From Candidatus Hydrogenedentota bacterium (lineage in GTDB: Bacteria; Hydrogenedentota; Hydrogenedentia; Hydrogenedentales; JAJRTN01), in the NCBI GenBank assembly GCA_024278275.1, contig JAJRTN010000004.1, forward strand, positions 3,149 through 67,148: a stretch of 64,000 bases of DNA, in the 5' to 3' direction. The notes below the pieces were generated by a model. The model saw only the letters and a program-made list of their open reading frames with translations, was not told the DNA's origin and searched no databases. Each line of letters opens with the position of its first letter. Within the stretch, counting starts at the first letter, position 1. The position numbers and the translations under genes are program-made. This document shows, piece after piece, positions 24,175 to 50,554 of this stretch.

Positions 24175-24194
24175 GCGCGGAGATTGCCTGAAGC

Positions 24195-24626
24195 ATGGTC
24201 ACCATCAACCTGACATTGTTCATCGAGGTGGGCCTGTTCCTCGTCTTCCTTTGGGCGATGAACCGCCTTGTGTTTCGTCCGCTGTTGAACGTCATGGACG
24301 GTCGCGATGAAAAACGCTCGGGTGATCTCCAGGTGGCCCGGGAAGCCGGCGCCGAGGCGGATCAACTGGAGAAGCAGTACGCCTCGGAATCCGTCCGAAT
24401 TCACCACGAAGCCAGCCGCGAGGTGGTACGCGCGCACCGGCAGGCACAGGAAGCCCACTTTCAGCGGCTTGCCGAACTGAAACAGCGGGGCGAGGAAGAG
24501 CTTAACGCGGTGCAACGGGAGGTTTCGGAGGCCATGGCCCTGGAGCGGAAAAACTACGAAGCCCTGGCGGTGGAACTTGCCGAGGCCATGGCGGAACAGC
24601 TTGCCGGGAAAGGGAATGCCGCTTGA
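24195..24626 (+). CDS. atpF: F0 subunit b
   Basis: Single N-terminal TM followed by a long charged helix. Position in the operon. Confidence 0.75.
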   Translation: MVTINLTLFIEVGLFLVFLWAMNRLVFRPLLNVMDGRDEKRSGDLQVAREAGAEADQLEKQYASESVRIHHEASREVVRAHRQAQEAHFQRLAELKQRGEEELNAVQREVSEAMALERKNYEALAVELAEAMAEQLAGKGNAA

Positions 24627-25396
24627 GCCCCGCGAAGAAATTCCTAATAATCTTTTTCGGTGTCGCCCTCGTGATCTGGATCGGGGCGAACGTGGCGTTG
24701 GGTCCGCCGGGCTATAGCCGCGCGTACCTTGACCAGTATCAAAACGAGCACGAACACTATCTTGAGATTATCAAGAGCAGTTACTACAAGCTCTATTCCG
24801 AAAGGCCCCACCTGCACCCCGTGGATGGCAAGGACGCGCCGCAGGGCTTTGCCCACCAGGTGGATTTCGTAAAAAAATATGAAGGCCGCGAGGCCTTCAT
24901 CCAGGAGCAGCACCGCAGGCATCTTTACGAGCTTTTTTTCGAGTTCTTCAACACGGGTCTCGTGGTGGTGCTCATCTGGCGCTTTGGTCGCAAGCCCCTT
25001 TTGAACCTGCTTGACAGCCGAATCGCGGATTTGCGCGAGCGGATTGAATCGGCCGCCCAGGCCCGCAAGGCCGCCGAGGATCGGCGCCGCAAAGCGGAGA
25101 TGCAGATTTCCCAGATTGCCGAGGAGAAGGCGCGCGTGGCCGAAGAGACCCGCGAACGCATTCAACGGGAACTCGGCCAACTGGAGGAAGCCAACGAACT
25201 GAGCCTGAAACTCATGGGCGAGGAACTGGCCGACCGGAAGGACCGGATCTACCAGAATGCCAGGGTGCAGGTGAAGGAAGAGCTTGTGAAACGGGCCATC
25301 GCCAGGGTGGAGGCCGATTATCGCGAACGGTGGGATTCGGCACGGGAAGCGGCCCAGTTCGAGCAATTCATCGAAGGCGTGGAGAAGGGCGCATGA
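24623..25396 (+). CDS. atpF: F0 subunit b' with an approximately 100-aa N-terminal extension containing an extra TM helix
   Basis: Second TM (TGLVVVLIWRFGRKPLL) followed by a b-type coiled coil. Additional N-terminal TM (FLIIFFGVALVIWIGANVALG). Overlaps atpF by 4 nt. Confidence 0.65.
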   Translation: MSPAKKFLIIFFGVALVIWIGANVALGPPGYSRAYLDQYQNEHEHYLEIIKSSYYKLYSERPHLHPVDGKDAPQGFAHQVDFVKKYEGREAFIQEQHRRHLYELFFEFFNTGLVVVLIWRFGRKPLLNLLDSRIADLRERIESAAQARKAAEDRRRKAEMQISQIAEEKARVAEETRERIQRELGQLEEANELSLKLMGEELADRKDRIYQNARVQVKEELVKRAIARVEADYRERWDSAREAAQFEQFIEGVEKGA

Positions 25397-25938
25397 AGGA
25401 TTATCTCATCGCCGAACGATATGCCCGCGGGCTGAGCGAATCCCTTTCGGACCGGGAATCGCTTGAACCCATGGCGGAGGCGCTCGCCGCCCTGGGCGCT
25501 TTGTATGAAGAAAGCCATGACTTGCGCAGCGTTCTCTCGAATCCCGCCATTGATGTTGCCCGCCGTGTTGATGTGCTGAGGCAGGTCTGCGACGGTATGG
25601 GAACGCCTTCCGTCGTGTTTCGGCTCGCGGAACTCATGGTACGGCGGGGGCGGATTACGCTTATGGCCAACGTGGCGGCGATTTTTTCGGAATTGGCCGA
25701 TGAACGGTTGAACCGAATCACGGCGCGTGTTACTTCCGCGGCGCCTCTTGACGAGCCCCGTCGGAGCCGCATTTGCGAGGCCCTTCGGAAGCATACGGAC
25801 AAGCAGGTGCGGCTGGATTGCCGCGAGGACAAGGAATTGCTGGGCGGCGTACACGTTCAGCTTGGCGACCGCGTGTATGACGGAAGCCTCAAAACGCGGC
25901 TCAAGAATATGAAGGATGCCTTGCTGGCCGAGGGATAA
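25393..25938 (+). CDS. atpH: F1 subunit delta (OSCP)
   Basis: ATGA overlap with the b' stop. MKDYLIAERYARGL N-terminus typical of delta. 181 aa. Confidence 0.8.
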   Translation: MKDYLIAERYARGLSESLSDRESLEPMAEALAALGALYEESHDLRSVLSNPAIDVARRVDVLRQVCDGMGTPSVVFRLAELMVRRGRITLMANVAAIFSELADERLNRITARVTSAAPLDEPRRSRICEALRKHTDKQVRLDCREDKELLGGVHVQLGDRVYDGSLKTRLKNMKDALLAEG

Positions 25939-26054
25939 GAAGTCCCTTTGCGCCTCCGCATAGGACCAACGGACACGGCAGGGGATGCGCTTTCCCGCGC
26001 GGGAAGCGCGGATAATGCCGCAGCGATGGCCGTTCTCCAGGGAGAAGTGAACGC

Positions 26055-27587
26055 ATGAAGATCCAGGCAACGGAAATCACGGAAATCATCAAGCGGCAGA
26101 TCGCCGATTACGAATCCACCGTGGAGATCGCCGAAGTCGGCACGGTGATTCAGGCCGGCGACGGCATCGCCCGGGTATTCGGTCTTGAGAAGGCCATGGC
26201 CGGCGAGTTGCTTGATTTCCCTGGCGGCGTGACGGGCATGGTCCTCAACCTCGAAGAGGACAACGTCGGCGCGGTTCTCTTTGGGGAATACGAGAAGATC
26301 GCCGAGGGCGACACGGTCAAGCGCACCGGGCGCATTGCCTCGGTGCCCGTGGGCGACGCGCTTATTGGCCGCGTGGTCGATGCCTTGGGGCAGCCGGTTG
26401 ACGGGCGTGGCGCGATTGACACAAACGAGTTCAACCCGGTCGAACGCATTGCTCCCGGGATCGTCGACCGCCAGCCCGTGTGCGAGCCCCTGCAAACCGG
26501 CTTGAAGGCCATCGATTCCATGACCGCCATCGGCCGGGGCCAGCGTGAGCTCATCATCGGCGACCGCCAGACCGGCAAGACGGCCATCGCCCTCGACACC
26601 ATTATCAACCAGCGCGGCGGCGACGTTATCTGCATCTACGTGGCTATCGGGCAGAAGCGGTCCACCGTGGCCCGCGTCGTGGAGGAGCTCAAGGAAAACG
26701 GCGCCATGGATTACACCATCGTGGTGTCCGCCACCGCCTCCGAAACCGCCCCACTCCAGTACCTGGCGCCCTTCGCCGGGGCGGCCATGGGAGAATACTT
26801 CCGGGACGCGGGCAAGCATGTGTGTATCGTCTACGACGATCTGTCCAAGCATGCCGTGGCGTATCGTCAGCTTTCGCTGCTGCTGCGCCGTCCGCCGGGC
26901 CGTGAAGCCTATCCCGGCGATGTGTTCTACCTGCACTCCCGCTTGCTGGAGCGCGCGGCGAAACTGAGCGACGAACGGGGAGGCGGCAGCCTGACCGCCC
27001 TGCCCATTATCGAGACCCAGGCCGGCGACGTGTCCGCTTATATTCCGACGAACGTCATCTCCATCACGGACGGCCAGATCTTCCTGGAAGCCAACCTCTT
27101 CTACTCGGGCGTGCGGCCGGCCATCAACCCCGGCATCAGCGTTTCCCGCGTGGGCGGCGCGGCCCAGAACAAGGCCATGAAGAAGGTGCAGGGTTCGCTT
27201 CGCCTCGACTTGGCGCAGTATCGCGAACTGGAGGCCTTCGCACAATTTGGAAGCGACCTGGATAAAACGACCCAGGCCCAGCTTAATCGCGGTGCCCGGC
27301 TGGTTGAAATACTCAAGCAGCCTCAGTATAAGCCCCTTGCCGTGGAGTTCCAGATCCTGATTATCCATGCGGCGTCGAAAGGCAAGCTGGATGATGTGCC
27401 CGTGGCCGCCGTGGCGCGTTACGAGGAAGAGCTCTACGCCTATTTTGAATCGGAGGCCAAGGAAACGCTACAGGAACTTCGTGAAACCGGCGCCATGAGC
27501 GAGGAACTGACCGTGAAGATCGATGAGGCCATCGACCGTTTTACGGAACGTTTCATGATGCGAAGCCGCGAAGAGGCCACGCAGTAA
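26055..27587 (+). CDS. atpA: F1 subunit alpha
   Basis: Walker A GDRQTGKT. Highly conserved alpha-subunit sequence. 510 aa. Confidence 0.95.
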
Positions 27588-27614
27588 CAGCGGCGGTACT
27601 GGAGAGCGTAAAGC

Positions 27615-29922
<2,308 letters not shown>

Positions 29923-29925
29923 ACC

Positions 29926-30342
29926 GTGGCCGAAGGCACCATCACTGTCGAGTTGTACGGACCAGAACGCGACCCGGTTCGCTTCGAGGTTCACGAAGCC
30001 GTGTTCCCGGGCGGCGGCGGCGTTTTCACCGTCCAACCGGGCCATACCAGTCTTTTGACCACGCTTCTCGCGGGGGTTGTGATCCTGAGAACCCGGGAAG
30101 GCGACGATCAGTATTTTGCCATCAGTGACGGTTTCGCCGAAGTCCGCGATGACCATGTTCGCGTTCTAAGCAGCGTTTTTGAATCAGGGCAAGATGTGGA
30201 CGTGGCCCGTGCCGAGGCCGCCCGCGAGCGTGCCGAGAGCCGTCTGCGAAAACCCGATGAAGATCTGGATCTCGCCCGTGCCGAAATGGCCATTCACCGG
30301 GCCCTGGCGCGAATCCAGGCCAGCAAGCGGCAGGATTATTAG
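29926..30342 (+). CDS. atpC: F1 subunit epsilon
   Basis: 138 aa, GTG start 4 nt after the atpD stop. Epsilon-like beta-sandwich plus C-terminal helices. Confidence 0.8.
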   Translation: MAEGTITVELYGPERDPVRFEVHEAVFPGGGGVFTVQPGHTSLLTTLLAGVVILRTREGDDQYFAISDGFAEVRDDHVRVLSSVFESGQDVDVARAEAARERAESRLRKPDEDLDLARAEMAIHRALARIQASKRQDY

Positions 30343-30456: not shown

Positions 30457-31416
30457 TTACTTGGGTCGCTCCTCTTCACCCGAGATGCGAAGGTCGGCGA
30501 TGGTGGCTTCCAATACGGCCTTTTCCGCGCGGCGCACGATGGCCGGGCCGATCCGCACCATGTACAGGCAATGAATCACCATTGCCGCGCAGACGGCGAC
30601 AATCCCGCCCCCCGGGATCCAGCGGACCAGGCAAGGCACGGAGTCGGCCCAGTCGGAAGTCAGGGCCGCCGCCACGCCGAGCCCGCCCGCGGCCCAGAGC
30701 AGGGCGAACACCACGTAAGGAAGAACGCTTCCCCCGAAGGTGGTGAGCAGGCGTGCCCGCGCGATATCCCGAAGCCCGTGAAGGAATCGTTCCGGCCCAT
30801 ACTTCGAAACGCCGTGGCGCCGCGGGTGGTGCCTGACGGGGACCTCGGTGACATCGTGGCCCGCATGGCGGGCGAAAACGGGAATCAGCCGGTGCATGTC
30901 ATCAAAGAGGGGGGTACATCTCGCCGCCTCGGCCCGCATCGCCTTGAAGCCCGTGTTGACATCATGCAAGCGCAGCCCGAAAGTCCGGGTAACATAAGCA
31001 TTGTACAACTTCGACGGCAAGGTCTTGTGCCAGGGATCCTTCCGGTCGGCCTTCCACCCACACACCATGTCATGGCCTTCAAACAGCTTCCCGAGCAAGG
31101 CGGGAATCTCGGCCGGGTCGTCCTGCAGATCCGCGTCCATGGTAACGAAAATATCCCCCCGTCCGTGGGCCAACCCGGCGGCGAGGGCCTGGGTTTTCCC
31201 CGCGTTCCGGGCAAACCGTATCAGGTCGACATGGGACATGCGCTCTTCCAGCGCACGCAGCACTTCGCCGGATCCGTCCGTGCTCCCGTCATCGATAAAC
31301 AGGATTCGGTGGGGCCAGGGGGCGGCATGTTCGGTGATGCCCTGGGCCAGCCGTTCAAGGGTGTCCTGCTCGTTGTAGACGGGCACAAGAAAAGTAATGG
31401 TGGGCGGGGGATTCAT
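30457..31416 (-). CDS. GT2 glycosyltransferase (polyprenol-phosphate sugar synthase, DPM1/ArnC/GtrB-like) with C-terminal TM helices
   Basis: FLVPVYNEQDTLERL and LFIDDGSTDGS motifs. DAD motif. Two C-terminal TM segments. Confidence 0.8.
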   Translation of the reverse strand: MNPPPTITFLVPVYNEQDTLERLAQGITEHAAPWPHRILFIDDGSTDGSGEVLRALEERMSHVDLIRFARNAGKTQALAAGLAHGRGDIFVTMDADLQDDPAEIPALLGKLFEGHDMVCGWKADRKDPWHKTLPSKLYNAYVTRTFGLRLHDVNTGFKAMRAEAARCTPLFDDMHRLIPVFARHAGHDVTEVPVRHHPRRHGVSKYGPERFLHGLRDIARARLLTTFGGSVLPYVVFALLWAAGGLGVAAALTSDWADSVPCLVRWIPGGGIVAVCAAMVIHCLYMVRIGPAIVRRAEKAVLEATIADLRISGEEERPK

Positions 31417-31574
31417 GCGGAGAATTGTACCCTATCGGCCAAAGCGGATCGACCGTCTTAAGAAGCCATTTAAAACATGGAAGATCTTTTGACCCGCCAT
31501 CCCGGGACAACGTGCAATCCAGCAGTCCCTAACCCGGCCAATCCGGAACCAGGAATCGTTACCGCCGTCCATGC

Positions 31575-31660
31575 CGCGATCCACCGTCATCCCCGCGAAA
31601 GCGGAGAGCCAGGGCGCGGGGAATCCCTGGATCGTTCACGTGGATTCCCGCCTTCGCCGG
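31575..31660. repeat. REP-like composite palindromic element (CGTCATCCCCGCGAAAGCGG plus GCGGGGAATCC..GGATTCCCGCCTTCGCC inverted repeat)
   Basis: Same hairpin family as 11803, 31990, 37243, 37670 and 61398. Confidence 0.55.
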
Positions 31661-31696
31661 ACGGTTTCGCTGAAATGGCCCCTTTGTAAATGGCCC

Positions 31697-31891
31697 TCAC
31701 CGTATGTCGGCGTCAAGCCACTTGATCAGCGACATCATGCCTCGGGCCCGCTTCAGCATGGTGGCCTTCAACCCGTGCTCACGGAGCTTCGCCTTGGCAT
31801 CGTGCCGGTCCTTGGCCACGATAATCCCCCCAACAAAGGATTTCTCCTCGTCGCCCTCGGCCCGGATCGCGTGATACTCGAAAGTCGCCAT
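31697..31891 (-). pseudogene. Fragment resembling the N-terminal cytoplasmic domain of a GspF/PilC-type (T2SS/T4P platform) protein
   Basis: MATFEYHAIRAEGDEEKSFVGGIIVAKDRHDAKAKLREHGLKATML follows the MAxFxYxAxDxxGxxxxGxxxAxxxxxAxxxLRxxGL pattern of GspF/PilC N-termini. Only about 64 aa, then a stop. Flanked by REP-like repeats. Confidence 0.4.
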
Positions 31892-31989
31892 GTCCCGTGT
31901 CTCCATTCCCCGGACTCATTGTACCATGCCCAACCTTTCCCGGGAATTGCGCACACGGCAGATCCATGTCGCATAAAGGCCGCGCCCCC

Positions 31990-32025
31990 CAGCTCCGTCA
32001 TCCCCGCGAAAGCGGGGACCCATGT
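31990..32025. repeat. REP-like hairpin unit CGTCATCCCCGCGAAAGCGGGGA
   Basis: Perfect 7-bp stem with GAAA loop. Same family as above. Confidence 0.55.
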
Positions 32026-32114
32026 CCCACACACCGCCCCTTGACACCTGAACATATATTCAGTATAATTTGCAGTGGCCAAGGACACAGGCAAAGGAGG
32101 AAAGGGGTATTCCC

Positions 32115-34718
32115 ATGAGGATGATCGAACTTATGCGCTATGACGTGCCGCCGGAGGTGATTGCTTTGTGGCGGGAACGGGAAAGCGACACGCTGCTGCC
32201 GTTGCAGGAAATGGCGGTGAAGCGCTACAGGCTCTTTGAGAAGGGCAATCGCCTGATCCAGGCGCCCACCAGCTCGGGCAAGACCTTTATTGGCGAAATG
32301 GCGGCGCTCCAGACGGCCATGCGGCGGAAGAAGGTGGTCTACCTGGTGCCCTTGAAGGCCCTGGCCGAGGAGAAGTACCACGACTTCCGGGAGAAATACG
32401 AAAGCTATGGTTTGAAGGTCATCGTTTCGAGCCGGGATCGACGGGAGTTCGACCGCGACCTGGAGACGGGGGATTTCTCCATCGCGGTGGTGGTGTATGA
32501 AAAGCTGTCGCAGCTCCTCGTGCGTCGCCCGGAGCGGCTGGAAGAGATAGACCTTATTATCGCGGACGAGTTGGAAATCCTGTCGGACCCGGAGCGGGGC
32601 GCCATGGTGGAGTTGCTGCTTACGCGCATTCTGCAGTCGGCGTGTCGTCTCATCGGGTTGTCGGCGGTGATCGGCGAGGCGGAACGGTTGGCCCGGTGGA
32701 TGAAGGCGGAGTTGCTCCATTACGACCGGCGGCCGGTGGAACTGCGCTACGGCGTGCTCCACGAAGGGGTCTTCCGTTATCGCACCTACAACGATTGCGC
32801 CGAGGGCGAGGAAAGCCTGGTGGACGCCCATGGGGAGTCCACTTGGGAAGGGGTGATCCAAAACGTGTGCGCTTTCGTTGCGCGGGGGGAGACCTGTCTC
32901 ATATTCGTGAAGGCCAAGCACGAATCGCGGCGGGGGGCGGAATTGCTCAAAGACCGCCTCCATGAACCCGCCGCGACGGAGGCGGTGGAGAAACTGCGCG
33001 GCCTTGAAGCGACGCGGTCGCGGGACGCACTGATCGAGTGCATGAACCAGGGTGTGGCCTTTCATAACGCGGATCTTTCACAGGCGGAACGTCTCGTGGT
33101 GGAAGAGGCCTTTCGAAAGGGCGAGGTGAAACTCATGATTTCAACGAGCACCCTCGCGGTGGGATTGAACATGCCGGCGCGGAATGTTTTCCTTACCCCG
33201 GAGAAATGGCGCTATGATCAACGCCTTGACATGCCGTGGAAGACGCCCATCCTGCATACGGAATACGAGAACATGGGCGGCCGCGCGGGGCGCTACGGCG
33301 CGGGCCATGCCTTTGGCCGGTCGATCCTGGTCGCCGCGACGCCCTTCGATTTCGAGACCCTGTGGCGGCGCTACATACAGGGGGAACGGGAAAGTATCGA
33401 GCCCCGCCTGGCGAAGGAGCCGCTGGAAAACCACGTGCTCCGCCTGGTGGCCTCCCGCTTCTGCCGAACCCTGGCGGAACTGTTGACCTTTCTGGAAAAC
33501 ACCCTCACGGGCCGGTGGATTTGGGCCGAGACCTTCACCCTGGAGGAGATCGCGTTTCGCATCCGCGCCGCCGTCAATCGCTGCATCGACGCGGGGGTGC
33601 TCACGTCGAACGAGGGGGGCCGCCTGGAGGCCACGCCTTTCGGGCTGGCCATCGCCTCGAAGGGTATTTGCATTGCCACGGCGCGGGAACTGGAGCATTG
33701 GATCAGTGAATCCGAAACGCGGGAGTGGAGCGATATCGATCTCATTTTCGCCGCCGCCGTCACGCCCGACGGGCGCATGTTCCAGGTGATGCTTACAGCG
33801 CGGGAGTATGAGCACGCCGACTATACGGGCCGCATCAGGCGTCACACGGTCCGGGACGACCTCGCCGCCGACACGCCCCTGAACCGAATCCGAAAGGGCA
33901 ACCTCACGCCCTTCTTCGAGGAGGTGCGGGCCATCAAGATCGCCCTGTTCCTCGAACACTGGATCGCGCAGGAACCCGTTCACGGCCTGGAAGAGCAGTT
34001 TCACACCATGTCCGGGCAGATCGTGTCCGCCGCGCAGCAGATCAGTTGGCTTCTCGACGCCACGGCCACCATCGCTTCCGCCCTCGGGGGAAAAAAGACC
34101 TTTATCACGCGCATCCGTCTCCTTTCCGAGCGGCTCCAGTACGGGGTGCTGGAGGAGACGCTTCCCCTGGCCCGGCAACGTCTCGCGAAGGGACGACGCG
34201 GCGTGGTACTGGAGATGGCGCGTGCGGGGCTTCACACGCCGGAGGCCCTGGCCGGGGCGTCCGAGGCCCAACTCCGGCCCTGGCTGAAACCCGCGGCAAT
34301 TCGCCGGCTCCAGGAATGGGCGCGGACCCAATGCCGGTCCCGGAAGCACCCGGCGGCGGAGACCGCCTCAAGCCCGGCCCCGGTTCTCGTGGTGGACGAC
34401 CGCCAGCCGGATCGTATCGAACTCGATGGGAAAGTGGTTATCCTGCAGGAAAAGCAGTACTGCCTCATTCGAATCCTGGCCGCCACGCCGGGGCAGTGCG
34501 TGCCCTACGACACGATCTACGCGGCCCTATGGGGCGATACCGTGGTGGAGAACAACCAGATGCACTACCAGAAGCAGAACCTGCTCAAGCGGATCCGATC
34601 CACGGTTCCGGACCGCGCCAACCTGGTCCGCACCATCCCCAAACGCGGTTTTGTCCTGGATCTCCCGGAGGAGGCGGTGCGCTGCCCGGAAAGCCCGGCC
34701 ATGTCTCCCGCCGCATGA
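32115..34718 (+). CDS. Ski2/Hel308-like DExH helicase fused to a C-terminal HhH motif and an OmpR/CadC-type winged-helix (trans_reg_C) DNA-binding domain
   Basis: AAGGAGG RBS and ATG 32115. Walker A APTSSGKT. DExH-type motif IIADELEIL. Helicase C-domain motifs. HhH-like LEMARAGLHTPEALAGA. C-terminal wHTH VVILQEKQYCLIRILAATPGQCVPYDTIYAALWG...LVRTIPKRGFVLD. Confidence 0.75.
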   Translation: MRMIELMRYDVPPEVIALWRERESDTLLPLQEMAVKRYRLFEKGNRLIQAPTSSGKTFIGEMAALQTAMRRKKVVYLVPLKALAEEKYHDFREKYESYGLKVIVSSRDRREFDRDLETGDFSIAVVVYEKLSQLLVRRPERLEEIDLIIADELEILSDPERGAMVELLLTRILQSACRLIGLSAVIGEAERLARWMKAELLHYDRRPVELRYGVLHEGVFRYRTYNDCAEGEESLVDAHGESTWEGVIQNVCAFVARGETCLIFVKAKHESRRGAELLKDRLHEPAATEAVEKLRGLEATRSRDALIECMNQGVAFHNADLSQAERLVVEEAFRKGEVKLMISTSTLAVGLNMPARNVFLTPEKWRYDQRLDMPWKTPILHTEYENMGGRAGRYGAGHAFGRSILVAATPFDFETLWRRYIQGERESIEPRLAKEPLENHVLRLVASRFCRTLAELLTFLENTLTGRWIWAETFTLEEIAFRIRAAVNRCIDAGVLTSNEGGRLEATPFGLAIASKGICIATARELEHWISESETREWSDIDLIFAAAVTPDGRMFQVMLTAREYEHADYTGRIRRHTVRDDLAADTPLNRIRKGNLTPFFEEVRAIKIALFLEHWIAQEPVHGLEEQFHTMSGQIVSAAQQISWLLDATATIASALGGKKTFITRIRLLSERLQYGVLEETLPLARQRLAKGRRGVVLEMARAGLHTPEALAGASEAQLRPWLKPAAIRRLQEWARTQCRSRKHPAAETASSPAPVLVVDDRQPDRIELDGKVVILQEKQYCLIRILAATPGQCVPYDTIYAALWGDTVVENNQMHYQKQNLLKRIRSTVPDRANLVRTIPKRGFVLDLPEEAVRCPESPAMSPAA

Positions 34719-35016
34719 ACAGCCCACCCACGCACCGCGAAGCGCCGCACGAGGCAATGCCCGCATCATCGAAGCCAACGGGGGCGCCGCCCCTTCAAGG
34801 CCATCAGGGAAAGCCACCATGGATCGCCCCCCGGGGATAACTTGAATACCACCCCCTGCAAGGCAATACTTACAGGACCGGGTGCGGCACGGTTACACGG
34901 CGCCCGCTGCACTTCCTGATCGTGGCTGACAGCGATAACCGTTCACGGAGAGCACGATGCTGCCGGTGCCGGGGATCCAGGCGGATGTGGCAGGGGGGCG
35001 ATGGCCGGAGAGTGGC

Positions 35017-35784
35017 ATGGAAGCTCAATCGGATACCAACACGAACCATGGCAAGGACCCCGCGCCCTGCCTCTCCCTGGTCATCCCCGCCTACAACGAG
35101 GAATCCCGGATCGGCGCCACCCTCCGTCATGTCCTGGCCTATCTCGACGCGCAACCCTACAGCGCCGAGGTTATCGTTGTGGACGACGGCAGCGTGGACG
35201 GCACCGGCCGTATCACGCGGGCCGCTTTCGCGGCGCGGAAGAACGCCCACCTGTTATCACATCACACCAACCGCGGCAAAGGCGCCGCTGTCCGAACCGG
35301 TATGTCGGCGGCGCGGGGAAGCTACCGCGTGTTCTACGACGCCGACGCCTCCACCCCCATCGAGGAACTGGAAAAACTCCGGCCCCGATTCGAGGATGGC
35401 GCCGACATCGTCATCGGCTCACGGGCCCTGGCGGATTCCGATATACAGGTCCGGCAGTCCTGGTACCGGGAGGCCATGGGCCGGATTTTCAACATCATGC
35501 TCCGTGCCTTGGCCCTGACACCGTTCCGCGATACCCAATGTGGTTTCAAAGGATTTACCGCGCCGGCCGCCGAAGTGGTCTTCTCCCGGCAGACCCAGGA
35601 GGGTTTCGCCTTCGACACCGAAATCCTCTTCATCGCCGCCGGCATGGGCCTGCGCATCGACGAAGTGCCCGTCCGATGGGTCAACTGCTCCCACACCCGC
35701 CTCCGCCCTTTTCACCACGTCCCCCGCATGTTCCTGGACATGTTGCGGCTCCGACTGCGCGCCTGGCGCGGAAGTTACCGCTGA
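35017..35784 (+). CDS. GT2 glycosyltransferase (dolichyl/polyprenyl-phosphate beta-glucosyl- or mannosyltransferase-like)
   Basis: CLSLVIPAYNEESRIGATL and VIVVDDGSVDGT motifs. Soluble. 255 aa. Confidence 0.8.
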   Translation: MEAQSDTNTNHGKDPAPCLSLVIPAYNEESRIGATLRHVLAYLDAQPYSAEVIVVDDGSVDGTGRITRAAFAARKNAHLLSHHTNRGKGAAVRTGMSAARGSYRVFYDADASTPIEELEKLRPRFEDGADIVIGSRALADSDIQVRQSWYREAMGRIFNIMLRALALTPFRDTQCGFKGFTAPAAEVVFSRQTQEGFAFDTEILFIAAGMGLRIDEVPVRWVNCSHTRLRPFHHVPRMFLDMLRLRLRAWRGSYR

Positions 35785-35888: not shown

Positions 35889-37166
35889 TTATGGATGGGC
35901 GGTGTGATGGAACAGGAATTCCGCGAGGGCCCGGTAGATCCAGGCCACGCCCCAGCGGGGAGCCACCAATTTGGACCGGAAAAAGGGGTATTGACGGTAA
36001 TAAGGGGCGCCATCGGCCGGTCGCCGAAGGTGCAGGTAGGTCCATTTCAAGGTCTTTTGCGCCAAGCCGCGCGCCGAAGGCAGGGCCTTCATCAGTACGG
36101 AGGGGCACAGAATGCCCTCGGCGCGAGCGTGTATATCCACCGGGTAACGGCCGCTTGCCGTAATGGGCATTCCGGAAGGGGTAAAGAGGGTGCGATAATA
36201 GCGCATGCCCCGGTGCAGCGCTTCCTCCATGTCCCCGGTGGGCCTGGAATGCTGGATGGCATGGAGCGCGCGCAGCACGAAGCCCGTGTGGTGGTGGTCC
36301 ACCAGGCGCATGAGGGACGCTTCGTAGGGCTCGGCCGCGTCCGATTCACCATAGGGCCAGGCGCCATCGGGGCGTTGGCGTGACAGGGAGAAGGCCTCCG
36401 CCCGTTCGGCCCGCTCCGCGCCGGGATTTTCACCGGCCACGTCGGCCAATTGTCTCAGAAAGGCCGCCACCAGCAGGTTGGCGTTATGTACCCGTCGCCG
36501 GTCGGTGACGGCGTAGGCGAAACAGCCCGTGCCGTCCGGCTGGTCCAGGTAAGGCAGCCCCTCCAGCAGAAAGGTCGCCACGGACCGCGCCGCAGACACG
36601 TAGGAATCGTTCCCCGTCAGGGAGGCCGCCCGGAGAAAGGCCTCGCCGCCCTGGGCGCACACCACCGCGACCGGCGTGTCCTTCGGCGTGTTCAGCCCCC
36701 TCGCCGTCACGTCGAAGGGGTATCCCCAGCACAGCCCCGGAAAGTCCTTGTTCCCCCGGCGGAGAAGCCAATCCAGGGAAGCCTTCGCGCCGTCGAGGTA
36801 CGACTCGTCCGCCGTAAGCTGAAAAAGACGCAGCTTCCCCAAGGCCACCAGGGCATGGGCCTTGGGGTTCTCCGACGGGGCGACCCCCAGTACGCGGCGG
36901 GCGGCCAGTGGAAAGAGGTCACACAAAAGGGTCGTGCCTTTTCGGAGAAGCGGACGCCCTTGTGCGCGCCGAACCAACCCGTGCTGCTTCACGTCAAAGG
37001 GGTCATACCCGGTCAGCCCGTGCCGGGCAATCCAGGTGTCCAGTTCCAACACCCAGGACTGGGCGGCTGCGATAATGGACTGGTTGGACGATTCCATATA
37101 ATGGTCCTGTGTATCAATAAACCCGGGGCCGCATGGTACGGTGCGCCACGCCGCGCATGCAACCAA
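35889..37166 (-). CDS. Hypothetical protein, possibly an (alpha/alpha)-toroid glycan-modifying enzyme
   Basis: 425-aa ORF with repeated aromatic/Gly-rich helical hairpin-like segments. No catalytic motif recognised. The start may be the internal MESSNQ (37097). Confidence 0.4.
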   Translation of the reverse strand: MVACAAWRTVPCGPGFIDTQDHYMESSNQSIIAAAQSWVLELDTWIARHGLTGYDPFDVKQHGLVRRAQGRPLLRKGTTLLCDLFPLAARRVLGVAPSENPKAHALVALGKLRLFQLTADESYLDGAKASLDWLLRRGNKDFPGLCWGYPFDVTARGLNTPKDTPVAVVCAQGGEAFLRAASLTGNDSYVSAARSVATFLLEGLPYLDQPDGTGCFAYAVTDRRRVHNANLLVAAFLRQLADVAGENPGAERAERAEAFSLSRQRPDGAWPYGESDAAEPYEASLMRLVDHHHTGFVLRALHAIQHSRPTGDMEEALHRGMRYYRTLFTPSGMPITASGRYPVDIHARAEGILCPSVLMKALPSARGLAQKTLKWTYLHLRRPADGAPYYRQYPFFRSKLVAPRWGVAWIYRALAEFLFHHTAHP

Positions 37167-37242
37167 ACCCCGTGATCCTTATTAATCCCCTACCCGTGAA
37201 GTTCTGTGCAAATGGTCATGAAAACGTGTTTCTCCCTCCCTT

Positions 37243-37275
37243 TTGTCATTACCGCGAAAGTCGGGAATCCACGGA
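37243..37275. repeat. Degenerate REP-like unit GTCATTACCGCGAAAGTCGGGAATCCACGG
   Basis: Matches the consensus GTCATCCCCGCGAAAGCGGGGAATCCACG with substitutions. Confidence 0.4.
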
Positions 37276-37519
37276 AATACGATGAACCTCAAAAAGGCGG
37301 TTAAATTGCAGGATTGGTCGTGAGTCATTGCCGAAAAGTGCTTTACATGCGTCAGTGCATTCACCTCTTGGGGGCGTGGATTTCAACGGCCGCGCCGTTG
37401 ATAACCGTCGATATACGTCCATGCCCCATGGCGAAATAGAACGAGTAGAAGCCTCCGCAATAAGGGTGCAACGGCCCTTTTCAGGTTCAACCACGAAACA
37501 CACAAAATACACGAAATCA

Positions 37520-37690
37520 ATGGGCCTTGACCCACCATAATCTTCCCCCATGGCAAGATGGTCTCGCCTCAAACACATAGGCATGGTGAGCCAAGGCCCA
37601 CCCACCACGCTCTGCATGGGAACGAGAGAATCTGTGTTCATCTGCGCAATCTGCGGATACATAATCATGGAGCCCCGCCTTCGCGGGAAA
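37520..37690 (+). repeat. Composite approximately 170-nt repeat element, copy 1 (GGGCCTTG..CAAGGCCCACC hairpins + conserved 60-nt core + CCCCGC hairpin)
   Basis: Collinear with 61245-61432. Shared core ggaacgRgagaatctg..cgcaatctgcggatacatWatcatggagccccgccttcgcggg. Lies in a 660-nt lower-GC noncoding gap. Confidence 0.7.
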
Positions 37691-37827
37691 ATGTAGAAGC
37701 GGCTTCCGGCCGCTTTAAATGCGCCGGGATGGCGCATCTATTCTTCGTTCCGACCAGGCCGGGTGGTTCGGAACCAGGAATTGCCGCCGCCGCCCGTGCC
37801 ACGAACAACATGCTGTGCCGTGATCGG

Positions 37828-38271
37828 TTACATTCCCCGAAAGGCATCCCGGATTCGGTCCAGCAGGGCGGTGTCCTCGCCGGTGGCGATGAGCATGAGC
37901 ATGCCTTTCCGGGCGGTCCGTTGGGGAACTTCCTTGGGCTTGGCCGCACCGAGGGCGTCGGCCAGCCCCCATGCTTCGACGATGGCCGTACCGGCGTCCT
38001 TCTTCTGGTATTCAAGGTTTCGAACGATCTTGCCTTCGTCGCCGTATTGGTAAATATCGACCGACGCATCCCCGATGGTCATGGAGACCTGCGCCACGGC
38101 TTCCAGGCCGGGCGTCACTTCCCGGTAATCTGCGATGTCCAGACCGGCCTTCTCGAAGGCGGCCTTCGCACGGGCGAAGGTCTTGGGCTTGGGAAGGAGG
38201 TGGGGAACGACGGGCACGAGGAGCAGGATCACGACAAGAGCGGTAAAGACTTTGACCAGGGGACTGTTCAT
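37828..38271 (-). CDS. Hypothetical membrane-anchored protein at the distal end of the fliP operon
   Basis: TAATG stop/start overlap with fliP. N-terminal TM MNSPLVKVFTALVVILLLVPVV. Not FliQ-like. Confidence 0.45.
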   Translation of the reverse strand: MNSPLVKVFTALVVILLLVPVVPHLLPKPKTFARAKAAFEKAGLDIADYREVTPGLEAVAQVSMTIGDASVDIYQYGDEGKIVRNLEYQKKDAGTAIVEAWGLADALGAAKPKEVPQRTARKGMLMLIATGEDTALLDRIRDAFRGM

Positions 38272-39080
38272 TACTGGAAACTCCTGGAGAGGCCGCCGAG
38301 GAGAAGATGCCACCCGTCGGCCAGGACGAACATGATGATCTTGAAGGGCAGGGATACGAAGATGGGCGGAAGCATCATCATGCCCATGGCCATGAGCGTG
38401 CTCGCCACCACCATATCCACGATGAGGAAGGGGATGTAAAGGAGGAAGCCAATCATGAAGGCCGTGGTCATTTCGCTGACGACAAAGGCGGGAACCAGCA
38501 CATGGGTGGGTACGTCGTCCCACCGCTCGGGCCGGGGCAACTTGGCGATATCCATGAAGAGCTTGATGTCGTTGTCCCGGGTCTGACGAAACATGAAGGT
38601 GCGTATGGGGTCGAGGGCCGCCGTGATGGCTTCCGCCTGGGTGATTTCATCATTAAGATAGGGTTGCAGTGCGCGCTCGTTGACCTGTTGATAGGTGGGC
38701 ATCATGATGAAGAAGGTGAGGAAAAGGGCCAGGCCCACCAGCACCTGGTTGGGCGGGGTCTGCTGGGTGGCCATGGCCTGGCGCAGAAAACCGAGTACGA
38801 CGATAACCCGGGTGAAACAGGTGGTCATCACCAGGATGGCGGGCGCCAGGGAGATGACGGTGATGACGAAAACGATGACGAGGGATGTGGGCAGGTTCTC
38901 CGTATTGACGGCGTCCCGCGCACCCTGAATCAGGTTCATCCCCAGGGGGTTGGGGTCCGGCTGGGCCTGCGCCGCGCCCGCGGCCACGATCATGGCCAGG
39001 AAGATCCATGGGGCGATGTATTTACGATTCCCGGTCACGGACACTTTCCCGGAGGTGACGTTGCAGACGCTGCAAGTCAC
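38271..39080 (-). CDS. fliP: Flagellar export apparatus protein FliP
   Basis: Signal peptide plus conserved FliP core VIVFVITVISLAPAILVMTTCFTRVIVVLGFLRQAMATQQTPPNQVL. Confidence 0.9.
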   Translation of the reverse strand: MTCSVCNVTSGKVSVTGNRKYIAPWIFLAMIVAAGAAQAQPDPNPLGMNLIQGARDAVNTENLPTSLVIVFVITVISLAPAILVMTTCFTRVIVVLGFLRQAMATQQTPPNQVLVGLALFLTFFIMMPTYQQVNERALQPYLNDEITQAEAITAALDPIRTFMFRQTRDNDIKLFMDIAKLPRPERWDDVPTHVLVPAFVVSEMTTAFMIGFLLYIPFLIVDMVVASTLMAMGMMMLPPIFVSLPFKIIMFVLADGWHLLLGGLSRSFQ

Positions 39081-39762
39081 TTCGGAGTTGGGTCAATTCG
39101 TCGTCGGAAGCGGACGTCGGCTCCTCTTTGCCCGTGGCCGCGCCGAGGGCCGCCAGAAAGTCCTGCCGCGACCCCGGGAGGTCGGGGGCGGCGGCTCCTT
39201 CCGGGAGGTACTCGGCAAAGGCGTCTTCCCCGAATTCGGCGACGGGTGCCACGCCGTTTTGCGAGACACCGACGACGAGGACACGTCCGCCGGTATGCAC
39301 GTAAAACAGGGCGGCGCGCGGCCCCAGGCTGACCCTGCCGATGACCCGGCCCAATTGCTGCCCCATGAGCAGCGGGGTTCGGGCGGCGTACCTGCGCAAA
39401 AGAAAACCGGACAGGAGGATCATCCCGACGACGATGCACAACGCCCCCAACGCTTTCCACAGGACATCATTCATGTCGGGCGGCCCGTTGGGGATGGCGC
39501 CCTCCGATGGCGTGCCACCCACCTCGGAACCACCGCCATAAACCGTTTCCATTCGTTTGCGGAAGGCTTCTTCCTCGGCCTGCTCGGCGGGTGTTCGAAT
39601 CGGCGCGGCTTCTTCGCCCCCCTCCGGCGTGGGGAAATCGCGCCCCTCAAGCTCCCACGTAACCGGCGTGGTGTTTTGCAGTGAAGGGGCGCTTTCCTGG
39701 CCGGCCGCGCCCAGCACGACGAGAGCAGCCAGGGCAAGACAGGCTCCTCTTTCCCTATTCAT
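39022..39762 (-). CDS. fliO: FliO-like flagellar protein with an extended acidic N-terminal region
   Basis: C-terminal TM plus FliO-like segment LWKALGALCIVVGMILLSGFLLRRY...GRVSLGPRAALFYVHTGGRVLVVGVSQ. Position directly upstream of fliP. The start MNRERG overlaps the fliN end. Confidence 0.5.
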   Translation of the reverse strand: MNRERGACLALAALVVLGAAGQESAPSLQNTTPVTWELEGRDFPTPEGGEEAAPIRTPAEQAEEEAFRKRMETVYGGGSEVGGTPSEGAIPNGPPDMNDVLWKALGALCIVVGMILLSGFLLRRYAARTPLLMGQQLGRVIGRVSLGPRAALFYVHTGGRVLVVGVSQNGVAPVAEFGEDAFAEYLPEGAAAPDLPGSRQDFLAALGAATGKEEPTSASDDELTQLRSDLQRLQRHLRESVRDRES

Positions 39763-40105
39763 GACCGGATGTTCCCAATTCATCCAAACCGGCAATCTCC
39801 GCGATCCGCACGCTGAGACCGTCCACCAACACAACCACCTCGCCCCGGGCGAAGGGCAGTCCATTGATTTGGAGGTCGGCCATCTCCCCGGCCAGCTTGT
39901 CCAGGGGGAGCACGGAGCCTTCGCGCAAGGCCAGTACGTCGCGCACGGTTGTCTTGCACTTGCCAAGGTCCGCGGTAATGCTGAAGCGCACCTTCAGCAG
40001 GTCCTGAATATCGAGCGTCTCCGGGCCGGGCTGAACCGGACGCAGTTCTTCGTCAAAGTCGTGATCGACCGCTTCGCCGCGCTCTGTCGGATGCTCGTCA
40101 CTCAT
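39755..40105 (-). CDS. fliN: Flagellar motor switch protein FliN (SpoA domain)
   Basis: ETLDIQDLLKVRFSITADLGKCKTTVRDVLALREGSVLPLDKLAGEMADLQINGLPFARGEVVVLVDGLSVRIAEI. Confidence 0.8.
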   Translation of the reverse strand: MSDEHPTERGEAVDHDFDEELRPVQPGPETLDIQDLLKVRFSITADLGKCKTTVRDVLALREGSVLPLDKLAGEMADLQINGLPFARGEVVVLVDGLSVRIAEIAGLDELGTSGHE

Positions 40106-40629
40106 GGCACAATGGGACTGAACTGTTTGTACTTGGACTCCAGGACATAATACTCCTCGGGTGCGCCAAAACGTTTGAGCAGATCGTTGGCCTTTTGCGT
40201 AACCTGCTTGAGAATGGCGTCTTGCGTATAACGGTCGTTCACCTCCGTCAGGGTGCGGTTTCGGTGGAGTTCGGCCACCATGGTGGTAAACCAGGACTTT
40301 CGGCTCTCGATAAGATCGGTCGTTTCGGGGGTTGAGCAGAAAAGAACCACCTGGAAAATAAGGATCGGAACCGGGGCTTCAGGATCGTCCGTCAGCACGG
40401 CGGCCTGCATGGATTCGAGCTCGATTGGCGTGGCCGCCTGGGGGATGATATCGATGGGATCCTTGGGCTCCGCCTCGGCCGGTCCCGCGAGCATTCCGCT
40501 CAAGACGAACTTGTACAACACCACCGCCAATATGGCCGACACGAGGACGATCCCCGTCACGACAATGAGTGTGCTCCGCAGCGGGGAACCGGCCTTACCT
40601 TCCTGTTCCTGTTTCTCTTCATCGGCCAT
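40102..40629 (-). CDS. fliL: Flagellar basal-body-associated protein FliL
   Basis: Single TM (LIVVTGIVLVSAILAVVLY) followed by a FliL-like periplasmic domain. Operon position after motB. Confidence 0.7.
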   Translation of the reverse strand: MADEEKQEQEGKAGSPLRSTLIVVTGIVLVSAILAVVLYKFVLSGMLAGPAEAEPKDPIDIIPQAATPIELESMQAAVLTDDPEAPVPILIFQVVLFCSTPETTDLIESRKSWFTTMVAELHRNRTLTEVNDRYTQDAILKQVTQKANDLLKRFGAPEEYYVLESKYKQFSPIVP

Positions 40630-40632
40630 GAT

Positions 40633-41433
40633 TTACTCCAAGCCTCCGCGGTATTCGACCGGCGAAACGGGATAGCCCCGGGTATTGCGCGGCATCTTCT
40701 CCTCGAGCCGGTCGTAGAGCCCTTCTATGTTACTCCTGTCAACAAGGCCACGCACATAAATCTCCACGCGCCGGTTGGCTTCACGCCCTTCCGGGGTATC
40801 ATTCGTGGCTTTGGGTTGATTGGGACCGACGGCGGTGATTTCGAATTGCTCCGAGGGTATGCCCCCGGTGGTGTAAAGATAGCGGGCCACCGCGTCGGCG
40901 CGATAATAGCTCAGCTCGTAGTTGTCCCGAAAACGGGCGGACTCCGTGACGGGGGTCGCATCGGTGTGGCCGCGAACCTCGATGAAGGCATCGGGCAATT
41001 GGCGAAGTGTTTCGGCCACTTCCCGCAAAAGGGGGTAGGCGTCGGGGCGCAACGTCGCCTGCCCCAAATCGTAGAGCATGGCGCCCGGCAGGCTCAATTT
41101 AAGTCCTCCCACCGCGTCATACTCAATCTTCACCTGGTGCTCTTTACCCTGTATCATCAAGCGCTGCCGAAGGTTGCGTGCCGCTTTTTTCGCCTCGGCG
41201 CTTTTCTTCTTGGGCGGCTGGTACTGGAGCTGAAGCGGGCTTGACTGCCCGGAAAAAATACCAAACGATGCTTGCAGCGCGACCATGGCGTCGTTGAAGT
41301 CTTCCTCGCTGATGGTGGAAAAGGAAAGGAGCAGCACGAAAAAAGTGAGCAGGAGGCTCATGAGATCGCTGAAGGTCACGATCCATGCCGGCGCGCCTTC
41401 CTCGCAGGGCGGACATTTCTTCTTTGCCGCCAT
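40633..41433 (-). CDS. motB: Flagellar stator protein MotB (OmpA-like peptidoglycan-binding C-terminus)
   Basis: WIVTFSDLMSLLLTFFVLLLS plug/TM with the conserved Asp. C-terminal OmpA motif YELSYYRADAVARYL. Confidence 0.85.
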   Translation of the reverse strand: MAAKKKCPPCEEGAPAWIVTFSDLMSLLLTFFVLLLSFSTISEEDFNDAMVALQASFGIFSGQSSPLQLQYQPPKKKSAEAKKAARNLRQRLMIQGKEHQVKIEYDAVGGLKLSLPGAMLYDLGQATLRPDAYPLLREVAETLRQLPDAFIEVRGHTDATPVTESARFRDNYELSYYRADAVARYLYTTGGIPSEQFEITAVGPNQPKATNDTPEGREANRRVEIYVRGLVDRSNIEGLYDRLEEKMPRNTRGYPVSPVEYRGGLE

Positions 41434-41436
41434 GGC

Positions 41437-42204
41437 CTATGCCACCGTGAGTTTCTCACGGATCTCGGGCGAGACGAAAGCCTTCAGCTTCTGCTCGACG
41501 ACCCGCGGATTATCACCGGATTGAATGGACAGAATACCCTCGATGGTGATTTCCTTCTGAAGAAGTTCCATGGCGGTGCGTACCTTGAGCTTTCCCGCCG
41601 ATGGCAGGAAAACAAGGTTGGCGAGAATGGCGCCATAGAGGGTGGTGAGCAAGGCGACGGCCATACCGCCACCGATGGCGGAGGGATCGTCCAGGCCCTG
41701 GAGCATCTGGACCAGGCCGATAAGCGTTCCGATCATGCCGAAGGCCGGCGCGAAAGCGGCCATGGCGTTGAGCACCGCCTGTCCCATGGCATGACGGTCC
41801 TCCATGAAAGCAATCTCGGTGGTCAGGATATCCTTGATGAGCTCGGGCGGCGTGCCGTCAATGGCAAGTTGAACACTCTTCTGCAAGAATTCGTCCCCCG
41901 CCTCACCGGCATGACTTTCCAGGGCGAGAATCCCCTCGCGGCGCGCTACCGTGGCGAACTCAATGATCTTCTGAATCAATTGCTCCGTGGTGCTCTCTTT
42001 CTGAAAGAAGGCGTTCTTGAGCGTTTTCATGACACTCAAAACATCGGCAAGGGGGAAATTGATGAGGGTCGCGGCCAGGGTACCGCCGAAAACCATGATT
42101 ACCGAGGGGATATTAACGAAGGCACCGGCGTTGCCCCCAAGCATGATAGTGATGAATACGAGCGAAATTCCCGACACGAAACCCAGTACGGTTGCAATAT
42201 CCAT
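41437..42204 (-). CDS. motA: Flagellar stator protein MotA
   Basis: Four TM helices. Conserved MotA cytoplasmic loop and C-terminal motifs (LGTLIGLVQML, GGMAVALLTTLYG). Confidence 0.9.
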   Translation of the reverse strand: MDIATVLGFVSGISLVFITIMLGGNAGAFVNIPSVIMVFGGTLAATLINFPLADVLSVMKTLKNAFFQKESTTEQLIQKIIEFATVARREGILALESHAGEAGDEFLQKSVQLAIDGTPPELIKDILTTEIAFMEDRHAMGQAVLNAMAAFAPAFGMIGTLIGLVQMLQGLDDPSAIGGGMAVALLTTLYGAILANLVFLPSAGKLKVRTAMELLQKEITIEGILSIQSGDNPRVVEQKLKAFVSPEIREKLTVA

Positions 42205-42553
42205 AGGGCTCCCTCTCTACCGGAAGTGACACGGTTGGATTCTTTCGGACATGGCGTATGGGGAGGGGCGCAACACCTTTCCCTTCCCACGCAACCGCCT
42301 GCGCGCTTCATCCACGCGCAGGAAACACGCCGCGCCGAATTACGAACTTCATTCTAACACCCCATCACCGGTATCGTCCAAGGCGCGTGTGGAACCCGCC
42401 GGGTGCGTGGTTTGCGCTGGACAGCTTGCCTGCCAGTGCTCTTGCGCCGGTCTTCCACTGGCGGACAAGCTGCCTGTGGCACCGCAAAGGGGTCGTGGCG
42501 ATTGCGCCGTTTCAGACAATCCGCGAGCGCCTGCTGTCATCCTTATGACGATT

Positions 42554-42586
42554 GCGCGGTCGGGGAAAAAAGGGTCCCCGACCGCG
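42554..42586 (-). terminator. Strong 11-bp GC-rich stem-loop about 40 nt downstream of flgE (T-run in the loop, not a canonical intrinsic terminator)
   Basis: cgcggtcgggg-aaaaaagggt-ccccgaccgcg perfect inverted repeat in the flgE-motA intergenic gap. Confidence 0.3.
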
Positions 42587-42624
42587 CTGCGCGATACACA
42601 GAGGTTACGTCACATCACGGGGGA

Positions 42625-43929: not shown

Positions 43930-43942
43930 GAGAATACACTCC

Positions 43943-45020: not shown

Positions 45021-45099
45021 GGAACACTTCCTCCTCTTTTTCGAATCGGGTCCGTCACGGCAACGGGCCGCAACGGCGTTTCATGATTGTTTGCGCAGG

Positions 45100-47298: not shown

Positions 47299-47458
47299 AT
47301 ATTACTCACCTCCTTTCCTGTGGGAATACCAATACCGGGGGCGAACACCCCCGGGGGTTGGGAAGAATGTGGTCGTACAGGGGGATGGGACGTATGAGAC
47401 ATATGGGACGTATGGAATACATACATCCCCTGGAAGCCCCCGAAACCATCTTGTGCGG

Positions 47459-48501: not shown

Positions 48502-48505
48502 GGTC

Positions 48506-50535: not shown

Positions 50536-50554
50536 TCCCGCTTATATCGGCGGC

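Follow-up and report, generated by a model that had tools for sequence, protein, structure and literature searches.

The window analysed here is a stretch of 64,000 nt on contig JAJRTN010000004.1 of a Candidatus Hydrogenedentota bacterium, and its gene of interest lies on the forward strand at 32115-34718. This gene encodes a Hel308-like helicase that ends in a winged helix-turn-helix (wHTH) domain of the OmpR/PhoB type, and its promoter encloses a palindrome of the kind that is bound by LexA in other bacteria. On these sequence features, the gene most likely encodes an SOS-regulon helicase, and LexA would bind its promoter and DNA damage would induce it. The open reading frame (ORF) opens with ATG, 14 nt downstream of the Shine-Dalgarno-like aaaggagg, and is kept as originally called, although the product has 867 residues and the length of 868 given before is the number of codons with the stop included. 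The coordinates of all features are collected in the table below.

Based on fold and architecture, the protein is a complete five-domain Hel308/Hjm-type superfamily 2 (SF2) helicase, and so a bacterial member of the Hel308/Hjm branch of the Ski2-like helicases. The Pfam domains are DEAD at residues 29-187 (E 1e-21), Helicase_C at 308-395 and archaeal helicase domain 4 (Helicase_dom4_arc) at 598-677 (2e-11), while the NCBIfam Hel308-type model aligns end to end, with residues 9-740 on model positions 6-707 of 739 (E 9e-110). The equivalog cut-offs of NCBIfam are missed, with 368 versus 887 bits for PRK02362 and 277 versus 1200 for helicase_Hel308; membership of the family is given by fold and architecture, and the protein does not count as an equivalog of archaeal Hel308. 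The ligase-associated DEXH model of NCBIfam matches the N-terminal part only (2e-23), and the DEXQc_Suv3 model of Pfam likewise matches the helicase. As originally predicted from the Walker A sequence APTSSGKT, the SF2 core is full and all its ATPase motifs are intact: the Q motif (Q31), Walker A (50-57), motif II (DELE, 151-154), motif III (SAV, 183-185) and motif VI (GRAGR, 389-393). Among 45 distant and 65 close relatives, Q31, G55-K56-T57, D151-E152, S183 and G389-R390...R393 are invariant or nearly so, and W616 and W645 of domain 4 are conserved. The label DExH, which had been given to the sequence ADELEIL, does not hold, as motif II (window 32565-32576) reads DELE both here and in every close ortholog, and the bacterial clade at large has DELQ. 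The helix-hairpin-helix (HhH)-like motif noticed behind the core turns out to be Hel308 domain 5, where the NCBIfam alignment continues to residue 740 and the structure prediction has helices at 680-744. R695 and G705 of this domain do not vary, and the HHH_5 profile gives weak matches in relatives.

The structural comparison leads to the same assignment. The full-length AlphaFold2 (AF2) model, built with 65 orthologs in the alignment, has a mean predicted local distance difference test score (pLDDT) of 90.1 and a predicted template modelling (TM) score of 0.80, with 745-753 as the sole disordered internal stretch. Its best Foldseek matches in the PDB are the Hjm/Hel308 structures 2zj2, 2va8 and 2p6r, with TM (target) of 0.85-0.89 over 708-759 alignment columns, and a second tier is formed by Brr2 and the helicase domain of PolQ. 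By phmmer against PDB sequences, Hjm (7e-75) and Hel308 (6e-63) are followed at a distance by HamB (8vx9, 3e-15) and Lhr (5v9x, 3e-7). With the archaeal enzymes the protein shares the layout of RecA1, RecA2, winged helix, ratchet and HhH, the sequence match (E 7e-75 to 2e-60) over residues 10-709, and the Hel308-specific Pfam domain 4. It differs from them in being bacterial, in carrying a sixth, OmpR-type domain on a flexible linker, and in having DELE or DELQ as motif II, where Hel308 has DEIH. Moreover, its gene sits under a putative LexA operator, whereas archaea are not known to have LexA. HELQ and the helicase-like domain of DNA polymerase theta belong to the common fold family (TM about 0.7-0.8), yet identity to them is only about 21%, neither the N-HELQ region nor a polymerase domain is present here, and the module added is C-terminal and of bacterial transcription-factor type. 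Mycobacterial Lhr, an SF2 3'-5' translocase inducible by DNA damage, is likewise bacterial and combines a winged-helix domain with additional modules at its C-terminus (PMC5758891). Its domain 4 and C-terminal region are of a type of their own, and an OmpR-type domain is not known from it. An identity as an Lhr-type helicase was rejected, since 5v9x is matched only distantly, over the motor domains.

The C-terminal tail is a canonical OmpR/PhoB-type winged helix by fold in the models, which bears out the trans_reg_C domain of the original prediction. Trans_reg_C (PF00486) matches residues 772-848 with E 1.1e-5 and 25.9 bits, slightly below the Pfam gathering score of 26.2, and matches are also found in 43 of 45 distant full-length relatives (E<=0.01; best E 2e-13). 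In two AF2 models the topology assigned by DSSP is that of the family, namely a beta-sheet (758-776), alpha1 (779-790), alpha2 (798-806), a recognition helix (815-830) and a wing (838-848). The wHTH modelled alone has a pLDDT of 81.8, and all of its top 50 Foldseek matches in the PDB are DNA-binding domains of the OmpR/PhoB/CadC/ToxR type, the best partners being those of ArlR, BaeR, CadC, RpaA, PhoB, RstA and GlnR. With such effector domains (PhoB 1gxp, ArlR 6iju, BaeR, CadC 5ju7, ToxR) it shares the N-terminal beta-sheet, the three helices and the C-terminal beta-hairpin wing, at Foldseek E of 4e-6 to 1e-3 and TM (target) of 0.66-0.81, together with the family hallmarks W806-G807, a hydrophobic alpha3 face and R844-G845 in the wing. 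Unlike the OmpR/PhoB regulators, the protein has no receiver domain, membrane anchor or bacterial transcriptional activator domain (BTAD), and its wHTH is fused to a motor protein. No Response_reg receiver domain is matched in the Pfam/NCBIfam scan and the wHTH comes after helicase domain 5; a two-component response regulator was thus rejected. The recognition helix has a signature of its own, V811-E812-x-x-Q815-[IV]-x-x-[HQ]819-[KR]820...L823, which is kept across the 45 members of different phyla, as is P842-[KRG]-R844-G845 in the wing. In this it differs from paralogous OmpR/PhoB regulators, since Q815, [HQ]819 and [KR]820 do not diversify between lineages. According to our own alignment with PhoB, several of the conserved positions presumably correspond to DNA-contact positions of that protein.

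The fusion is conserved in related genomes, as the original prediction had suggested checking, and it is an uncommon architecture, as claimed. The 120 best database matches are all 58-84% identical and about 865-930 residues long, nearly all are annotated with PF00486, and those with names are mostly Candidatus Hydrogenedentes, with a few labelled Nitrospiraceae. When the last 177 residues are used as the query against 1.84 billion representatives, 471 matches are obtained, many of them proteins of 840-990 residues matched at their C-terminus, and 43 of 45 distant full-length proteins from this search have DEAD, Helicase_C and Trans_reg_C at 24-55% identity to the query. Among species-representative genomes, the full-length form with the wHTH occurs in Hydrogenedentota, Armatimonadota, Atribacterota, Sumerlaeota (Sumerlaeales), Zipacnadia and a few others. 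The Binatia homologs (731-754 residues) have no C-terminal extension, those of Myxococcota, Fimbriimonadaceae, Planctomycetota and Zixibacteria have a different one with no Trans_reg_C match, and the archaeal Hel308 proteins come next in this search, at 30-32% identity. The database label for the family is only 'DEAD/DEAH box helicase', and we found no description of it in the literature on Hel308 with an OmpR or winged-helix domain or on Trans_reg_C with a helicase. It had also been asked whether the fusion is an assembly chimera, with a response-regulator fragment attached to a helicase gene near 34300. The unusual architecture and a slight climb of GC along the gene are all that speaks for such an artefact; the full-length architecture recurs in more than 100 independent assemblies and in distant phyla, the reading frame continues through the fusion and the linker keeps its position, which leaves a chimera a negligible chance.

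Table. Features of the helicase gene and its surroundings (positions in the window).
Feature	Position	Strand	Basis or remark
Coding sequence, 867 aa: Hel308-like SF2 helicase with C-terminal OmpR-type wHTH	32115..34718	+	end includes stop codon (34716-34718)
Sigma-70 promoter TTGACA-17 nt-TATAAT (-35 32041-32046, -10 32064-32069)	32041..32069	+	12/12 consensus positions
Palindromic operator CTGAACATATATTCAG (CTGAA-N6-TTCAG), filling the promoter spacer; putative LexA (SOS) box	32048..32063	.	sequence and conservation
Shine-Dalgarno-like purine tract aaaggaggaaagggg 5' of the ATG at 32115	32093..32107	+	read from sequence
RecA1 and RecA2 motor, aa 1 to ~425	32115..33389	+	Pfam DEAD, Helicase_C; conserved motifs; Foldseek to Hjm/Hel308
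Hel308 domain 3 (winged helix, aa ~430-515) and domain 4 (ratchet, aa ~516-678)	33402..34148	+	approximate boundaries; Pfam Helicase_dom4_arc, model superposition
Domain 5, HhH-like, aa ~679-744	34149..34346	+	NCBIfam alignment to residue 740; weak HHH_5 in relatives; predicted helices
Flexible linker, aa 745-756	34347..34382	+	pLDDT <50 at 745-753; length and sequence variable among relatives
OmpR/PhoB-type winged helix, aa 757-860	34383..34694	+	Pfam Trans_reg_C 772-848, AF2 topology, Foldseek
Element like a repetitive extragenic palindrome (REP), (C)CGTCATCCCCGCGAAAGCGGGGA, internal CCCCGC-GAAA-GCGGGG hairpin	31584-31611, 31995-32022, 61402-61423	-	none expected by chance

The regulation of the gene is suggested by the sole promoter-like site within 31400-35100, a sigma-70 promoter with the palindrome in its spacer. 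What the original prediction missed is this candidate SOS box within the promoter, which points to a DNA-damage-response helicase. The pattern CTGW-N8-WCAG has only one match in the window, at the operator itself, and the design TTGACA-n-CTGAW-N6-TTCAG-TATAnT is found upstream of all 32 Hydrogenedentota orthologs with upstream sequence, including two with a degenerate left half and one with an exact E. coli-type CTGT-N8-ACAG. Further strong box sites are absent from the window and from about 360 kb of Hydrogenedentota ortholog loci, where neither lexA nor recA was found; a lexA was later found on the metagenomic contig L095, described below. In one ortholog (L003, 7816-8000) about 180 nt, not about 50 nt, separate the promoter-operator from the start codon downstream of it, implying a long 5' leader. 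Known LexA boxes are CTGT-N8-ACAG in E. coli and GAAC-N4-GTTC in B. subtilis (PMC4234289, PMC8565304).

The promoter-operator is the same as that found before lexA, recA and dinB. A metagenome scan for the pattern TTGACANCTGAWNNNNNNTTCAGTAT returned at least 80 loci (L084-L163), of which a few of those listed are likely chance matches. The pattern lies 5' of helicase orthologs in at least 15 loci and 5' of lexA (Peptidase_S24 with LexA_DNA_bind) in at least about 30. Among the matches listed, it also precedes recA at least once, dinB followed by lexA at least three times, several RecA-fold imuA-like genes, at least one SOS-response-associated peptidase (SRAP) gene, at least five integron-integrase-like recombinase genes and at least one gyrB. 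A Hydrogenedentota origin of recA (L089) and of the large lexA group was considered and rejected, as the lexA group belongs to Binatia and recA, with the related operator CTGAAC-N4-GTTCAG, to Elusimicrobiota; these loci are thus useful for the identity of the motif, not as proof within the phylum. The dinB, imuA-like, SRAP and integron-integrase-like genes with the box lie on untyped contigs. The link within Hydrogenedentota comes from contig L095, whose helicase carries the wHTH at its end and has 56-59% identity to named Hydrogenedens/Hydrogenedentes orthologs. In the 13.7 kb of this contig the box occurs exactly twice, where 0.2 matches are expected: once on the promoter of the helicase and once on that of a convergent lexA, TTGACA-17-TATACTGAAACTATATTCAGTA.

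In other phyla the wHTH-bearing members have GAAC-N4-GTTC at the corresponding place in the spacer, as L064 shows with TTGACTtgCGAACatttGTTCGATATACT. When up to one mismatch is allowed within 200 nt upstream, this box is present in 10 of 11 wHTH-bearing members outside Hydrogenedentota, where the calculated expectation is about 0.08 per locus. Its strict form is matched seven times among the 39 loci from outside Hydrogenedentota, where the background is 0.009 per 200 nt. In Myxococcota metagenome-assembled genomes, the relative stands second in a recA or a lexA operon: in L036 the relative (4894-7566) starts 10 nt after recA (3741-4883), with L040 arranged alike, and in L054 it (4278-7079) starts 39 nt after lexA (3564-4238), whose promoter TTGACAGAACatttGTTCggTATTAA has GAAC-N4-GTTC as its spacer box. 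By our own reading, a site in L058 nearly matches the SOS box of M. xanthus (PMC9705874), at 15/17 positions. Taken together, the same promoter-operator at lexA, recA, dinB and other such genes, the pair of boxes on L095 and the LexA boxes across phyla lead us to infer that the operator is LexA's and that the gene is an SOS-regulon member in several phyla. Several of the Binatia loci L034, L035, L039, L052 and L060, which lack the LexA box, instead contain a long inverted repeat, AAAGAGTAAACGTATCC-N22-GGATACGTTTACTCTTT, in the region about 60-120 nt before the start of the helicase gene. In Atribacterota, lexA (772-1598) and the helicase of L073 are divergent genes with about 800 nt of AT-rich sequence between them, no shared LexA box was recognised at this locus, and L070 and L073 share GTTTTAGTTTTAGTTAAAAAA just upstream of the helicase.

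The regulatory logic has known parallels. In Bacteroidetes, RecQ and RecG are LexA-regulated repair helicases (PMC8565304). With DinG, UvrD and RuvB of E. coli they follow the principle expected for the present gene, in which a LexA box blocks the promoter of a helicase gene until DNA damage frees it. The present protein comes from a helicase family unrelated to the LexA-regulated ones of model bacteria. In the literature searched, no LexA-controlled (SOS) Hel308-type helicase is described, and a limited search, in which Binatia and Elusimicrobiota were not searched by name, gave no published SOS motif for Hydrogenedentota. We know of no published SOS description for phyla of the Binatia and Elusimicrobiota type.

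On this basis we regard the protein as a probable, uncharacterised damage-induced repair helicase under LexA control, with its wHTH presumably serving as an anchor rather than as a gene regulator. In the undamaged cell, a LexA dimer on CTGAA-N6-TTCAG between -35 and -10 would shut the consensus-strength sigma-70 promoter, and DNA damage would lead, through RecA-stimulated LexA cleavage, to a burst of helicase. By homology, the enzyme would be a 3'-to-5' single-stranded DNA (ssDNA) translocase or helicase acting on forks, gaps and D-loops. The wHTH, which about 12 flexible linker residues connect to the HhH domain 5, may add an anchor for double-stranded DNA or branch points, which would position or retain the motor on damaged replication or recombination intermediates. 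Accessory winged helices position the motor in RecQ or PriA, which offers an analogy. Domain 5 of Hel308, HELQ and PolQ has been described as an ssDNA-sensing brake or gate through which annealing versus unwinding is controlled (PMC13623763). Because of this gating role in HELQ and PolQ, an extra DNA-binding module right after domain 5 is mechanistically plausible. Some observations weigh against a LexA-controlled repair helicase with an anchoring wHTH. The link within the phylum is one metagenomic contig (L095), whose taxonomy comes from helicase similarity only. The Myxococcota proteins in recA and lexA operons have no Trans_reg_C match, so that their linkage supports the clade and not the fusion itself. 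SOS control is not universal either, as the Binatia homologs lack both the tail and the box, though the lexA of Binatia uses the box. In addition, motif II lacks the His of DExH, the conserved recognition helix is equally compatible with a conserved specific target sequence, and canonical OmpR-type domains are normally sequence-specific.

A rival reading is a helicase-type transcription factor, as the original prediction proposed. In such an 'addressed helicase', still SOS-induced, the wHTH would read a defined, phylum-spanning sequence, either a chromosomal site or a promoter class, and the motor would remodel DNA, R-loops or RNA polymerase there: its ATP-driven unwinding might serve replication restart, the removal of R-loops or RNA polymerase, or a switch of transcription, and the protein would be a motor-coupled transcription factor in a second SOS tier. 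The effector domain is canonical and every structural relative is a sequence-specific regulator, the DNA-contact positions of the recognition helix and wing are strongly conserved, and the wHTH subfamily is almost exclusively found on these helicases. However, the three orthologs on long contigs show no conserved neighbour gene or candidate target operon, the signature of the recognition helix is identical across phyla with no obvious shared regulon and stays constant while the operator changes with the phylum, and some clade members lack the domain or have a replacement. None of the helicase motifs is impaired, repair helicases are the nearest relatives, and the gene itself appears to be the target of regulation, with its putative LexA operator. 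We therefore hold this regulator, in each of its forms, to be unlikely. Our best guess for the wHTH remains a duplex or branch-point anchor, and it is probably not a promoter-specific transcription factor.

Another role for the wHTH would be autoregulation, in which the protein's own domain instead of LexA binds the promoter palindrome. The palindrome is indeed strictly conserved with the gene in Hydrogenedentota and has no second copy in the window, but the identical promoter-operator stands at lexA, recA, dinB, imuA-like and SRAP genes with no helicase adjacent, and lexA carries the box in L095. OmpR-type domains also usually read direct repeats, not 16-bp inverted repeats. Moreover, the operator switches to GAAC-N4-GTTC in other phyla and the wHTH signature is the same in lineages with CTGAA-type and with GAAC-type operators, which argues against autoregulation through the palindrome, a very doubtful reading in our judgement, and for a ligand common to all. 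The least probable role is that of a nucleic-acid surveillance component, the other alternative of the original prediction, considered here as an anti-phage protein like the Hachiman helicase HamB. The PADLOC HamB profiles match the helicase core with E down to 3.5e-38, and the HamB structure 8vx9 is matched at 3e-15; the two proteins share a Ski2-like core. These matches are confined to the generic RecA1/RecA2 core, and the similarity to Hel308 is far higher (7e-75). No HamA/DUF1837-like partner or defence-island context is present, as the adjacent ORFs have no family and glycosyltransferase, ATP synthase and flagellar genes make up the neighbourhood. This neighbourhood is not shared by the three orthologs on long contigs, which likewise have no such partner beside them, and the gene shows vertical conservation throughout a phylum.

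In archaea and eukaryotes, helicases of the Hel308/HELQ/PolQ type have a central part in repairing forks and controlling recombination; in bacteria they are usually regarded as marginal. Our analysis defines a widespread bacterial Hel308 branch in Hydrogenedentota, Armatimonadota, Atribacterota and Sumerlaeota, with relatives in Myxococcota and Binatia, and its putative LexA-regulon membership in several phyla would give this branch a physiological setting. It also provides CTGAA-N6-TTCAG as a candidate LexA operator for Hydrogenedentota and Binatia, beside the related CTGAAC-N4-GTTCAG on the Elusimicrobiota recA. The Hel308 fold, the OmpR-type wHTH and the logic of SOS control are each known, and what appears uncharacterised is a phylum-spanning, putative SOS gene that joins them, which is not categorically new. 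The OmpR-type domain directly follows domain 5, which in Hel308 and PolQ is described as gating annealing versus unwinding. If the wHTH is an anchor, the family would be a natural experiment in the tuning of Hel308 motors by accessory DNA binders; if it is sequence-specific, it would represent a new kind of motor-coupled regulator.

As for its surroundings, the window represents an ordinary part of the chromosome. Upstream of the helicase is an F-type ATP synthase operon (a, c, b, alpha, gamma, beta, epsilon; 23851-30342, plus strand), and a flagellar cluster (38271-54228, minus strand) with MotA/MotB, FliO, FliP, FliE, FliF, FliG, a type III secretion system (T3SS)-type ATPase and rod proteins lies downstream. 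Between them the helicase is flanked by a divergent family 2 glycosyltransferase (GT2) gene and, 239 nt downstream, by a co-directional one. Thus the two flanking GT2 genes of the glycosyltransferase cluster originally proposed are real, but they are only two and the helicase is not part of a cluster. Ortholog contigs were used to compare the gene context: the three orthologs on long contigs lie in three unrelated neighbourhoods, apparently as monocistronic genes, so the glycosyltransferase context is incidental and the conservation of neighbourhood that was to be looked for is not observed. An operon of the helicase with the GT2 genes was rejected on account of the 239-nt gap and the arrangement not being conserved.

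The REP-like repeats reported before are present as 28-nt copies at 31584 and 31995, with a third copy at 61402. The first two are direct copies, 411 nt apart, and bracket a small ORF just upstream of the helicase promoter. This ORF (31697-31891, minus strand; 64 residues, MATFEYHAIRAEGDEEKSF...) is what had been taken for a gspF fragment, yet it has no significant Pfam match, the best being E 0.08 to a domain of unknown function (DUF). Downstream, a 425-residue ORF at 35889-37166 (minus strand) has coding-like GC at third codon positions (GC3) and no Pfam family, and the ORFs 37558-38439 and 38307-39332 likewise have no family. The GC content, mostly about 0.6-0.67 in the window, dips to 0.52-0.53 at 37000-37750.

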